Source: Octopus vulgaris (taxonomy: Eukaryota). From it: 64,000 nucleotides of DNA. Shown piece by piece: positions 2,608-56,460 of the stretch (position 1 is its first letter; each line of letters begins with the position of its first letter). Both the position numbers and the translations under genes were made by a program. Below the pieces are notes generated by a model. That model saw only the letters and a program-made list of their open reading frames with translations. It was not told the DNA's origin and ran no database searches. Location: the NCBI GenBank assembly GCA_951406725.2, contig OX597830.1:12896001-12960000 (forward strand). Direction: 5' to 3'.

Positions 2608-2787
2608 TAAATGGAGTTTAACGCAGGTATAAATCAAATACTTTTACTTCCGTTTCGAAGATTTCACTGATATTATTCAAAAGAATGAATGGTATAAAAC
2701 AATGCAATCTTCTCTTCTGTAGAGAATCTTCGAAACATGTGTCGAAAGTAAAAGTATTTGACTTATACTTGCGTTAAACTCTATTTA
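2608..2787. mobile_element. Small hairpin element beside (TA)n with decayed hammerhead
   Basis: GGAGTTTAACGCAGGTATAAATCAAATACTTTTACTT pairs with AAGTAAAAGTATTTGACTTATACTTGCGTTAAACTCT; CTGTAGA..GAAACATGTGTC at 2717-2743. Confidence 0.65.
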
Positions 2788-3599
2788 TTTATTTATATAT
2801 TATACAAAAAATTCCACATAAACTCGAAGTTTCTACCTTTAAAAACAAAGATTATTTGTGTGATTTTTTGCTATCTATTTTTTCCGTGTTAATTGTTAAC
2901 AAGGGAAAAATACACTCTATATATATATATATATATATATATATATATATATATATATATATATATATATATATATATATATATATATATAACACATACA
3001 AGCAAAAACGAATTCCTTGATTTTTGGCAATGGTAATGTCGAGGGAGTAGAATGAGAAAGAAAAATTCTACACCTTGCAACTTCCTGAAAATTATTAAGA
3101 ATAAAAAATAAACAAATATATATTCTACAAACAAATTCCAAATACAGTTTAATTATCCTGGTGAAGTAATTTGATTTAGCAAACATTATTTGAAAGATTT
3201 GTGAAAATAGTTATATTTGAATACGAGCATCACTATTTGGTATAAAATATAACTGAAAAACAAGCAATTTTTTGGAAATGTCCATTTTTTCTATTCTTTT
3301 TAATGGCGTTTTTTAGTAACTCTGATACCACCACTGAATTAGGAAAACAAAATATTTATTTTAGATATTCATTTAATAAATAATATTACATAGTGTACTT
3401 GTAGTTATCAAGAAAATAAATTCTTACTTGGCAGAAAACAGAGTAAATAGTTATCATGTAATATCAAAATAGTGTATGGTCAACGCTCAAGGAAGATAAT
3501 GTATAACAGAGATATCAGCTTTACAAATACATTTTGGTTGGGCTGTTACGCAAAAGCAGCAAAGAGCAAAGTCAGGAAAAATACAATTCAAGCCTGTGG

Positions 3600-3983
3600 A
3601 ATTAGATACGAAACAAGAATGACCTCCCTCAGTTTGGATGTAAATCTGTGCTTAATATATCATTCATACATGCCTTTACGATTGGACATTTGAGATAAAT
3701 GTGTTCTGTCTGAAATAAATGGATTCTATGGCAGCCATGATAATTCCATCTTAATGTACCTTGTTAATTTATGATGTTGAGTTGCAACCGATTCCACCAT
3801 AGCAAGGAATGATGTGGAGGTGGAGAAGCAGATTTAAGCAAGGATTTCTATCACCTCAACCGATATGGTTCTGCATATTAAGCAACGTGTCCTTTGTTTC
3901 GACATCATGAACATAATCTCATTATCTCATTGTCCTAACAATATTCAGCTTGTGATAACCTTTTTCACACCGAGAATCTGTGA
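3600..3983 (+). pseudogene. Possible highly decayed piggyBac-type transposase fragment
   Basis: Fragmentary YMP and CDNxFT-like motifs (TGTGATAACCTTTTTCACA at ~3951) across frameshifts. Confidence 0.3.
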
Positions 3984-4370
3984 TTATATATATATATATA
4001 TGTATATATATATATATATATATATATATATATATATATATATATATATATATATATATATATATATATATATATAATTATTGTTAACAAGGGAAAAATA
4101 CACACATCTATTTATATCTCTCTTTTCTCTTTTACTTGTTTCAGTCATTTGACTGCGGCCATGCTGGAGCACCGACTTTCGTCGAGCAAATCGACCCAAG
4201 ACTTATTCTTTGTAAGCCCAGTACTTATTCTATCGGTCTCTTTTGCCGAACCGCTAAGTTACGGGGACGCAAGCACACCAGCATCGGTTGTCAAGCGATG
4301 TTGGAGGGGACAAACACAGACACACAAACATACACACATACATATATATATATATATATATATATATATA

Positions 4371-4816
4371 AAATATTATTAGAGACAAAACCACTATTTT
4401 GCAAAACAAACAAGGAAAGACTTAATCAATACATAAAATTTTAATAAATAGTCAAAAAAACCGCCACTACAATCGTTTCTTGTCTTGATCGACAATCTTC
4501 AGGTGGACTTCAATAATTCAGTTTCAAATTATAAAGGAAATGATAAAGGAATAAACGACTATCTTATGAACTTCACTAGTTTATAGCTGTTTCTGCAGCT
4601 GAGTGTCCGAACAACACGTTACAGCTTCACCAGAACCATTCAACTAGGAATCCACGGCATCTTATAAAAGAAACAGTTGTCACTTAATAAAGTTCATGAG
4701 ATAATCGTTTATTCCTTTCTGATCTCATTTTCATATTACCACTTTATACTCGACTAGCACTTCGTTCTGAAGCAAACACATATTGAGTTCTACACCAGTC
4801 ATGCAATGCCTAAGCG
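4371..4816 (-). mobile_element. Hammerhead-bearing Penelope-like-derived insert in (TA)n
   Basis: Bounded by (TA)n on both sides; 4378-4500 homologous to 13831-13965; contains hammerhead 4464-4506. Confidence 0.75.
4464..4506 (-). ncRNA. Minimal type I hammerhead ribozyme
   Basis: Minus strand CCAC-CUGAAGA-UUGUC(GAUCAA)GACAA-GAAA-C(GAUU)G-UA-GUGG: full core, 4-bp stem I, 5-bp stem II. Confidence 0.85.
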
Positions 4817-5443
4817 ATATATATATATATATATATATATATATATATATATATATATATATATATATATATATATATATATATATATATATACATATAT
4901 ACATACATATATATACGACGGGCTTCTTTCAGTTTCCGTCTACCAAATCCACTCACAAGGCTTTGGTCGGCCCGAGGCTATAGTAGAAGACACTTGCCCA
5001 AGGTGCCACGCAGTGGAACTGAACCCGAAACTTTGTGGTTGATAAGCAAGCTACTTACCACACAGCCACTCCTGTATATATATATATATATATATATATA
5101 TATATATATATATATATATATATATATATATATATATATATATATATATATATATATATCGCTTAGGCATTGCATGACTGGTGTAGAACTCAATATGTGT
5201 TTGCTTCAGAACGAAGTGCTAGTCGAGTATAAAGTGGTAATATGAAAATGAGATCAGAAAGGAATAAACGATTATCTCATGAACTTCATTAAGTGACAAC
5301 TGTTTCTTTTATAAGATGCCGTGGATTCCTAGTTGAATGGTTCTGGTGAAGCTGTAACGTGTTGTTCGGACACTCAGCTGCAGAAACAGCTATAAACTAG
5401 TGAAGTTCATAAGATAGTCGTTTATTCCTTTATCATTTCCTTT
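4534..5443. repeat. Inverted repeat, ~285-bp arms (4534-4818 / 5157-5443)
   Basis: Near-identical reverse complements enclosing (TA)n-SINE head-(TA)n. Confidence 0.95.
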
Positions 5444-5699
5444 TCTTATATATATATATATATATAGATAGATAGATAGATAGATAGATAGATAGATAGA
5501 TAGATAGATAGATAGACAGACAGACAGACAGACAGATAGATAGATAGATAGATAGATAGATAGATAGATAGATAGATAGATAGATAGATAGATAGATAGA
5601 TAGACCTTCCAATTTTATTTTGTTATGTATATACACACACACACGCACATATATATATATATATATATATATATATATACACACGTAAGTATGTATACA

Positions 5700-54400: not shown

Positions 54401-54440
54401 CATACATACACACACATACATACATACATACATACGCATA
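42439..54440. repeat. ~12-kb (CATA)n simple satellite
   Basis: Direct inspection; scattered CATG, CGTA and CACA variants. Confidence 0.99.
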
Positions 54441-54474
54441 TTATTCTACTCACATTCTATCGATATATTCATTT

Positions 54475-55262
54475 ATTCTTTTACTTGTTTCAATCATTTG
54501 ACTGCGGCCATGCTGGAGCACCGCCACTAATCGAACAAATCGACCCCAGGACTTATTGTTTGTAAGCTTAGTACTTATTCTATTGGTCTCTTTTGCCGAA
54601 CCGCTACGTTACGGGGACGTAAACAAACTAACATGGGTTGTCAAGCGACGGTGGAAGACAAACACAGACACACAAATATACGTGCACACGCACGCAGACA
54701 TACACACACGTGCGCACATACATACATACATATATCATACATATATATATATATATATATATATATATATATATATATATATATGGTATAAGTGGTTACG
54801 GTATTCGGCTCACGATCTTAAGGTCGTCAGTTCAAACCCCGGCGACGCGTTGTGTCCCTGAGCAAGACACTTTATTTCACGTCGCTCCAGTCCACTCAGC
54901 TGGCAAAAATGAGTTGTACCTGCATTTCAAAGGGGCTAGACTTGTGTCACATTCTGTGTCACGCTGAATCTCCCTGAGAACTACGTTAAGGGTACACATG
55001 TCTGTGGAATACTCTGCCACTTGCACGTTAATTTCACGAGCAAGCTGTTCCGTAGATCGTATCAGCTGGAACCTTTGTCGTCATAACTGATGGAGTGCTC
55101 CTGTATATATATATATATATATATATATATATATATACGACGGGCCTCTTTCAGTTTCCGTCTACCAAATCCACTCACAAGGCTTGGTGGTCTCGAGGCT
55201 ATAGATGAATTCACTTACCCAAGGTGCCACGCAGTGGTTGGAAAGCAAGCTTCTTACCACGC
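54475..55262 (-). mobile_element. SINE A split by a plus-strand SINE B-related element (54785-55100)
   Basis: Tail 54475-54720, head 55137-55262; insert flanked by (TA)n. Confidence 0.85.
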
Positions 55263-55595
55263 CTGCTTTTCTCTCTACAAAACAGAATGTTACATCGCGG
55301 AACAGTCATTTTAACGAGTTGTATTTATTTATCACTCGACGAGATACATCTGCACCACCGGATGCTCCTGAATCAGTTGTTAAGTGTCCCACCCATGAGG
55401 AATCGATGCTAGATATGTAGAAACAATTGTCGTGATTAATAATAAATTCTCCTATATTCCATTTTCCGTCTTTCAATTGCCAATAGCAGCCAAAATAGCA
55501 GCCAAAACTTGACTCTGAAACCACATTAAATGTTCATACAGCACCAGGAGAGAAGACAAAAAGACAAAATAAACTAGCAAAAGAATAACTGGATA

Positions 55596-55654
55596 ATTCC
55601 AGATCCCGGATTTCTGGATCTGCATAAGAAATGCTTTGCCTTCATCAGTGGAAT
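55596..55654 (-). ncRNA. Type I hammerhead ribozyme candidate
   Basis: Minus strand AUUCCA-CUGAUGA-A-GG..GCAU(UUCUU)AUGC..CC-A-GAAA-UCCGGGA-UC-UGGAAU; 6-bp stem I. Confidence 0.7.
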
Positions 55655-55715
55655 ATACGCAGATAGCACATAAATACAGATATATATATATATATATATA
55701 TATATATATATATAT

Positions 55716-56460
55716 ATTTATCAATACAGGGTAGCAAAAATTCAAGAAAAAATTCAAGAAAAATTTTGCAACCAGCGGTCAAGTGAGAAAATAGAAATAG
55801 CCACAGACTATATAATATATTCAACAAAATATTAAGGAAAGACCCTTACAGGTCGTTCGACTCACTTAAAAAGAGCAGCCAAAACTCAAACCGCAAAAAT
55901 AGTAGTAATTCTGAAAGCTAAAGGAGAAATAAAAACATTTATCCCTTTCCAACTTTGTACCCTGCAAGGTATCAACAATTTTTACGCAATCGAACTTAAT
56001 TAAATTAAATTAAATCCGTTTACGATTGGTTTGTTTCATCAGCAAAGTCCCAAAAGAAATATATTGATAAATTTAAATTAATAATTTTTGACTAATTCTG
56101 AAATTGTATCAGCAGTTTATATTTGCTGCTGAGTAGTTGGCGCGGTTACGTTGGATTTCGAAAAATTAGGATATATACACTCGGGGCTTCAGCGGTATCG
56201 CCTCGTGTGTATATGTTCGCCTTTTCTTTTGGGACTTTGCTGATGAAACAAACCAATCGTAAACGGATTTAATTTAATTTAATTAAGTTCGATTGCGTAA
56301 AAATTGTTGATACCTTGCAGGGTACAAAGTTGGAAAGGGATAAATGTTTTTATTTCTCCTTTAGCTTTCAGAATTACTACTATTTTTGCGGTTTGAGTTT
56401 TGGCTGCTCTTTTCAAGTGAGTCGAACGACCTGTAAGGGTCTTTCCTTAATATTTTGTTG
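55716..56460. mobile_element. Hairpin element in (TA)n: ~238-bp arms (55822-56059 / 56223-56460)
   Basis: Near-perfect inverted repeat, ~163-bp spacer, ~105-bp unpaired left extension, (TA)n on both sides. Confidence 0.9.
56234..56330 (+). ncRNA. Hammerhead variant with long stem II and GAUA in place of GAAA (mirror copy 55952-56048, minus strand)
   Basis: ACUUUG-CUGAUGA-AACAA..CAAUCG..CGAUUG..UUGUU-GAUA-CCU(UGCA)GGG-UA-CAAAGU. Confidence 0.65.

Follow-up and report, generated by a model that had tools for sequence, protein, structure and literature searches.

Non-coding hammerhead-bearing stretches at TA repeats of an Octopus vulgaris contig, likely inserted by Penelope-like elements

The window analysed here is a stretch of 64,000 nucleotides (nt) of Octopus vulgaris DNA (GenBank assembly GCA_951406725.2, contig OX597830.1, positions 12,896,001 to 12,960,000, forward strand). 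An earlier note on this DNA described four inverted-repeat elements (A to D) and three unpaired remnants that abut (TA)n tracts and carry hammerhead ribozymes. In the reading favored here, with a probability of roughly 0.7, these are non-coding stretches with type I hammerheads that were likely inserted at TA repeats by Penelope-like elements (PLEs), each hairpin likely being built anew at its own insertion. Direct observation covers the inverted repeats, six hammerhead cores that lie within elements, tails on one side only, and the high copy number of family D.

Inverted repeats and hammerhead motifs

All four inverted repeats are present where they had been placed. Arm alignment gives 58/64 matched positions in A, 283/284 in B, 859/870 in C and 241/243 in D, and the C arms differ at 11 sites and by 6 insertions or deletions. 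The two best-preserved hairpins were described as having one longer arm, and this is the case in both C (by ~83 nt, 13741-13823) and D (by ~104 nt, 55718-55821). The longer outer end belongs to the left copy in each.

A descriptor of the type I hammerhead that is blind to the elements and permits at most one core mismatch was run over the whole window, with 60 dinucleotide shuffles as the control. Enrichment over shuffled controls had been named in advance as a test, and the window holds seven cores against 0.37 +/- 0.55 (maximum 2) in the shuffles. Six of the seven fall inside the elements noted earlier: 4502 (-) in B, 15492 (+) in C, 37581 (+), 55648 (-), and 56042 (-) and 56240 (+) in D. 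The seventh, at 63427 (-), is located outside the elements, 4.4 kb from the nearest TA tract, and looks like a chance match. When a scored descriptor is compared motif by motif with 100 shuffles, no shuffle reaches the motifs of B, C, D, 37581 or 55648. Hammerheads had been proposed at all seven sites. This stands for B, C, D, 37577-37611 and 55596-55654 and falls for A (reached by 27 and 29 of 100 shuffles) and for 1-697 (scored at 500-697; 18 of 100). The ribozyme strand points outward from the axis, as described, in every confirmed motif within a hairpin. These motifs are located in the left extension only of B, the right arm only of C and both arms of D. The features are as follows, with strand in brackets.

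1..697 (+): pyrimidine-rich stretch ending at (TA)n; CTGAAGA half-core, no complete hammerhead; membership unproven
2609..2786 (no strand): hairpin A, in which a hammerhead-like motif is discernible in its 3' half alone; membership unproven
4371..4532 (-): left extension of B, unpaired; its part 4371-4506 is related to the C 3' end; adjoins (TA)n at 4342-4369
4464..4506 (-): type I hammerhead of B, intact core, outside the paired arms; 0/100 shuffles
4533..5443 (no strand): B hairpin, arms 4533-4816 and 5160-5443, 283/284
13741..14756 (-): element C copy with tail (~83 nt, 13741-13823); at the axis, 54 nt are unpaired
14757..15636 (+): tail-less copy of element C; TG/TA-rich low-complexity body with internal diverged repeats; (TA)n at its end, 15637-15696
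15488..15533 (+): type I hammerhead of C with its core intact and a palindrome, CGATCG, as helix III; 0/100 shuffles
37535..37712 (+): remnant with minimal hammerhead (37577-37611); (TA)n from 37713 at its end; 0/100 shuffles
55331..55436 (+): extra degenerate hammerhead from a two-mismatch scan, core TCGACGA, helix III CAATTG; 2/100 shuffles
55596..55654 (-): type I hammerhead in the 55440-55680 remnant; the core is intact and helix I has 6 base pairs (bp); 0/100 shuffles
55718..56059 (-): element D inverted 5'-truncated copy with 3' tail (55718-55821, ~104 nt); (TA)n at its end, 55680-55717
55951..56049 (-): mirror hammerhead in the D left arm, with a GATA change at 55971
56060..56460 (+): element D direct copy, with a 163-nt unpaired 5' part, a 238-nt arm and no tail; (TA)n from 56461
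56233..56331 (+): type I hammerhead of D with a 7-bp helix I, an extended helix II and a 5-bp helix III; 0/100 shuffles

The isolated D motif (56233-56331) is predicted to fold into the hammerhead three-way junction. Helix III is open in the predicted fold of the whole direct copy, which has a folding z of -3.7. The start of this copy lies ~10 nt within the terminal sequence of the tail. In C, the left ribozyme is broken by a 10-nt deletion at 13962/13963 that takes the start of the core. The B and C hammerheads largely keep the core and stems, and they differ mainly at N7 and in loop II. The B left extension and the C right copy end at the identical point. In the paired arms of B there is only a degenerate candidate (5343-5399 and its mirror) that is not significant, being reached by 12 of 100 shuffles, and the B axis is a SINE-like repeat (resembling a short interspersed element), with many copies in the window, between two TA tracts. 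In hairpin A, only the left side bears a TA tract, (TA)7. The 37577-37611 motif has the core CCGACGA, an extra A before helix II, a G-C closing pair and a CG helix III. The motif at 55331-55436, absent from the earlier note, is convergent with the 55648 motif, and the two segments meet at ~55440 in AT-rich sequence.

Helix III is palindromic (Watson-Crick) at 9 of the 10 inner pairs that the descriptor leaves free (P 5e-5). In this count B is omitted as a relative of C, and 37581 contributes no inner pair. The Rfam hammerhead models do not match 55262-56460 or 15300-15636, and over the whole window there is no hammerhead among the 150 of 251 Rfam matches listed, which are mostly microsatellite.

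The elements were said to share architecture rather than sequence. This is correct only in part: over 122-149 nt, B has a likeness of 80-84% to C, and 17 of 18 nt are common to D and the 55648 remnant. The latter stretch is found at 56397-56415 (+) in D and 55491-55508 (-) in the remnant, 70-90 nt downstream of the ribozymes. B and C contain a looser version, GTTTTG(G/T)CT, and all six matches in the window (6/6) fall within these elements. The 18-nt motif is a possible protein-binding or priming signal.

A TA tract follows the predicted cut at a downstream distance of 97-137 nt in four of the six ribozyme loci (B, C, 37581 and D). The background chance of a TA tract within 150 nt downstream, a threshold picked post hoc, is 0.115, which gives P 0.002 for 4/6 and P 0.005 for 4/7 when the chance-like core at 63427 is included. 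The 55336 motif reaches a TA tract only across another element. Three hairpin or terminal inverted repeat (TIR) elements of the window that have no hammerheads are more than 2 kb from TA tracts.

Family D in contigs of public sequencing runs

Element D (55718-56460) was compared with the contigs of four public runs at a likeness of at least 80%; the differences and loose ends described below are drawn from 40 of 55 and 24 of 112 rows, respectively. D and its surroundings are present in public runs under several species labels; the small-share runs X14-X20 do not enter the comparison. No run with D is listed as RNA, and X10 would be one only by guess. Matching contigs were found in all four runs (276, 219, 113 and 62), and D is therefore a repeat family. 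The contigs at 56107-56246 and 56178-56262 pass from the unpaired part of D into the right arm; thus, 56060-56460 is one linear copy. In the inverted copy, family contigs extend over both the tail and the arm.

The inversion junction is rare. In run X1 the depth is 53.5 at 56068, in the junction region, versus 41,215 at 56107. One 73-nt contig spans the junction (56031-56103) with no differences. Two further joints, both weak, are found in X3 (depth 60, with a 28-letter side) and X1 (depth 5), and may be other inversion points. All contigs across 55971 (10, 3, 2 and 2 in the four runs) read GAAA, where the window reads GATA, and the same is true across 56311 (3, 4, 1 and none). Since GATA is found on both arms of the window and GAAA in the contigs, the arms come from one template or were homogenized later by conversion or polishing. 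A single compensatory case is found in one X8 contig, where changes at 55962 and 55967 turn the T-G pair of helix III into A-T. The proposal that the hairpin itself is the mobile unit is unsupported for D, in which the junction is rare among contigs and the GATA of the arms is absent elsewhere. Because the junction is rare and the arm change is unseen in other copies, the D hairpin looks like a one-off insertion product.

Upstream of the direct copy, the contigs carry a different sequence from the window. Loose ends before 56085 match the end of the D tail, in ribozyme sense, in 9, 9, 10 and 3 contigs of the four runs, with an agreement of 0.77-0.99 and no other upstream sequence among the rows listed. 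The direct copy of the window begins with the identical tail-end letters. This upstream sequence, common to 4/4 runs, points to a likely head-to-tail monomer of ~495 nt that is retrozyme-like and has no open reading frame (ORF). The monomer put together in this way comes to 496 nt and has a GC content of 0.337, and as a circle its predicted fold is -131 kcal/mol (z -5.3 versus 60 shuffles). The longest stop-free frame in a sense-strand dimer is at most 62 amino acids, and no single contig covers a whole ~495-nt unit. Helix II of D is far beyond 4 bp, and the unit is therefore called retrozyme-like rather than a canonical retrozyme. The earlier view of ORF-less units mobilized in trans is thus supported for family D only, through the head-to-tail loose ends. 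For B, C and the remnants, it is equally possible that they are truncated ends of coding PLEs, and a head-to-tail match of the C tail to the 5' part of C was sought and not found (P 0.90).

No Pfam match to reverse transcriptase (RT) or GIY-YIG was found in any of the 182 window frames (at least 65 amino acids, complexity-filtered); these copies are therefore not autonomous elements. Exact-pattern scans found no D in metagenome or viral contigs and no 37581 motif in metagenome contigs.

Insertion by Penelope-like elements and its alternatives

PLE insertions are described as having an inverted 5'-truncated copy, a one-sided tail of 30-40 bp and a microsatellite bias (Craig et al. 2021, PMC8557442; Arkhipova et al. 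2013, PMC3846280). As far as the published descriptions go, the elements of the window resemble insertions of endonuclease-positive PLEs in the head-to-head inverted 5'-truncated copy (C and D; B is atypical), the one-sided 3' extension, the microsatellite or AT-rich target and a hammerhead ~100 nt upstream of the 3' end. They differ in that these copies have no RT/GIY-YIG ORF. A PLE link and TA targeting had both been suggested before; both are supported here, and they are largely published (PMC8557442, PMC3846280, PMC4209133). The metazoan PLE hammerheads reported by Cervera and de la Pena (2014, PMC4209133) are similar in being type I, with a helix I of 4-7 bp, a palindromic helix III and a frequent extra base before helix II; numerous sequence families within one genome and pairs on opposite strands, 100-700 bp apart, are further points in common. 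The D motif departs from them through its helix III of 5 bp and the great length of its helix II. In vitro, the protein of a lizard PLE cleaves the two strands of AT-rich DNA and extends them, starting at two internal RNA sites with the tail between them (Frangieh et al. 2024, PMC11167929). In that system the ribozyme cleaves at +26, and RT begins at +111-118, or 85-92 nt further on (PMC11167929).

By analogy, a PLE protein would nick both strands of the (TA)n tract. It is probably Neptune-like, that is, from a microsatellite-targeting, hammerhead-bearing clade; this is only the likelier guess, because Naiads target (TA)n but are without canonical hammerheads. Each nick would then prime RT at one of two RNA start sites, ~100-140 nt and ~190-240 nt downstream of the ribozyme cut, and the tail would be the stretch between them. 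Two early-stopping complementary DNAs (cDNAs) would join head to head, giving an inverted repeat with outward ribozymes and one longer arm. The tail of D is found only in the left copy and the 163-nt 5' part only in the right copy. Because each copy has a part missing from the other, D needs two primings and is not a single strand folded back. Under this scheme, each of the two D cDNAs runs across the site of ribozyme cleavage, and the template would therefore have been uncleaved, multimeric or circular. For family D, the template would likely be the ORF-less ~495-nt monomer, from a head-to-tail array or a circle, mobilized in trans. C fits two primings or a fold-back, and B better fits a fold-back at TA.

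Animal non-LTR (long terminal repeat) retrozymes (Cervera and de la Pena 2020, PMC7229834; Li et al. 2026, bioRxiv 10.64898/2026.07.22.740005) share with family D a non-coding, low-GC sequence (0.34 in D) with one type I hammerhead per unit. Head-to-tail units (inferred in D), a strongly self-paired predicted circle and a proposed dependence on PLEs are also shared. Family D differs in its length (~495 nt versus 150-450 bp) and its non-canonical ribozyme, and its unit is a putative one deduced from contigs. The main text of PMC7229834, as retrieved, does not contain the words 'inverted' or 'microsatellite', and the retrieved text of the preprint does not contain 'tail'. Non-autonomous Chlamys PLEs, such as MRC1, are likewise described as short ORF-less PLE derivatives with head-to-tail insertions; they differ in being green algal and mostly without hammerheads (PMC8557442).

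A bolder version, which is doubtful, takes family D to be a ~495-nt circular-RNA parasite whose genomic copies record the reaction. Two PLE RTs would prime on one circle, at the two start sites, and read through the religated ribozyme site, and the second would stop where the first began; the direct copy would therefore start within ~10 nt of the tail end. Circles as PLE templates have already been proposed (PMC4209133). If true, this would be direct structural evidence of animal retrozyme integration from circles by a PLE enzyme, and the window would hold several such families.

The alternative that survives best is that all of these are ordinary 5'-truncated or inverted ends of full-length coding PLEs, with the D junction being either an internal repeat of short length or part of a tandem within some longer element, and no separate gene-less family. 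PLE hammerheads are reported mostly as scattered solitary motifs, and pairs on opposite strands, 100-700 bp apart, have been interpreted before as truncated PLEs (PMC4209133). In addition, the D junction match is only ~21 nt, and the contig comparison covered D only. Against this, the same upstream sequence recurs at one place in the 9, 9, 10 and 3 contigs, and the direct copy of the window itself opens with tail-end letters. We consider this explanation unlikely, though one to be reckoned with.

Much less probable is that the hairpins are fixed mobile units, or elements with long TIRs resembling miniature inverted-repeat transposable elements (MITEs), that are copied whole. The arms of B and D are at least 99% alike and both ends adjoin TA, as such elements would have it; however, the depth falls to 53.5 at the D junction from 41,215 nearby, other runs carry family sequence rather than an inverted arm upstream of 56085, the weak X3 and X1 joints suggest other inversion points, and the arm lengths are unequal. 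A MITE/TIR element was also tried for D and rejected, as fixed symmetric TIRs are not found in all copies; the arms are unequal and the junction is rare.

It is similarly improbable that the palindromes in general are assembly errors or were made by the host, through fold-back or template switching at TA after insertion: the axis of B is a TA tract, itself palindromic, and its right arm ends at no shared site, such that the B palindrome may be host-made, but the C arms differ at 11 sites and 6 insertions or deletions, one short-read contig crosses the D junction without difference (29 letters on one side), and D is unexplained by a single-strand fold-back.

Several observations weigh against insertion by PLEs with each hairpin built anew. 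At the 55648 remnant the TA tract is 5' of the ribozyme, not 3'. The common SINE-like repeats of the window are also TA-flanked, and TA adjacency is therefore not specific. A and 1-697, which score no better than shuffles, are without a demonstrable ribozyme. The G10.1-C11.1 pair, which is reported as conserved in PLE hammerheads (PMC4209133), is missing from the B, C and D hammerheads. The tails of C and D (83 and 104 nt) exceed the 30-40 bp of published PLE insertions. The right arm of B ends short of the ribozyme, at no shared site, and its axis is a TA tract. The common GATA could stem from gene conversion or assembly polishing. The contig across the D junction has 29 letters on its left side, under the 31-letter bridging rule, and the run that supplied it may be the source of the window itself. 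The head-to-tail junction consists of ~21 matching nt of a 30-letter loose-end consensus, and the contig of X3 record 18 carries 59 upstream letters that do not align to the D tail.

The elements of the window are mostly explained by known biology. The PLE-insertion architecture is not new and would be recognizable to a PLE specialist, and gene-less PLE derivatives are already known (Chlamys, retrozymes). The families of B, C, D and the remnants may already be catalogued in Repbase or Dfam. For O. vulgaris, 30 recently active Penelope families are listed in PMC13282606, and the word 'ribozyme' is absent from the retrieved part of that paper. A full-text literature search, with few subscription papers covered, found no retrozyme-like unit with a PLE tail, an inversion and a TA target. 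Arguments about which enzyme moves animal retrozymes still draw on co-occurrence and sequence likeness. One review states that retrozyme repeats have no motif by which their partner could be recognized (PMC7761336), and a 2026 preprint uses phylogeny to argue for PLEs as the movers (bioRxiv 10.64898/2026.07.22.740005). A gene-less hammerhead monomer with a PLE-specific tail and inversion would be a mechanistic fingerprint, tying retrozymes to PLE enzymes. From the two 3' ends of D, the exact positions at which RT should start in the existing in vitro PLE assay can be predicted.

Other features of the window

The window has a GC content of 35% and is rich in simple and SINE-like repeats. A (CATA)n satellite tract occupies 12 kb at 42400-54450. 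Adjoining it, at 40614-42353, are about six head-to-tail SINE-like copies (272 bp, 98% alike) in which the descriptor finds no hammerhead; the same repeat recurs at 19880-20256 and 54913-55099. Three tandem copies with a 184-bp period are located at 11234-11842, and this repeat recurs at 21380, 31036-31251, 31618 and 39014-39444.

The hairpin at 27769-28044 (78/85 matched) has GC-rich arms and an A-rich center, with no hammerhead and no TA flank, and is MITE-like. A TIR repeat family with internal telomere-like (TTAGGG/CCCTAA) tracts is found at 40012-40402, 61171-61847 and 62724-63172, and one of its copies is a 500-bp palindrome. At 16497-17282 (-) there is an unrelated 262-amino-acid fragment resembling a FLYWCH/MULE transposase, which is the one relevant match among the 182 scanned frames and whose Atlas matches are eukaryotic clusters only. 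A tRNA-like Rfam match (58.6 bits) at 30936-31007 (+) adjoins a high-copy repeat family.

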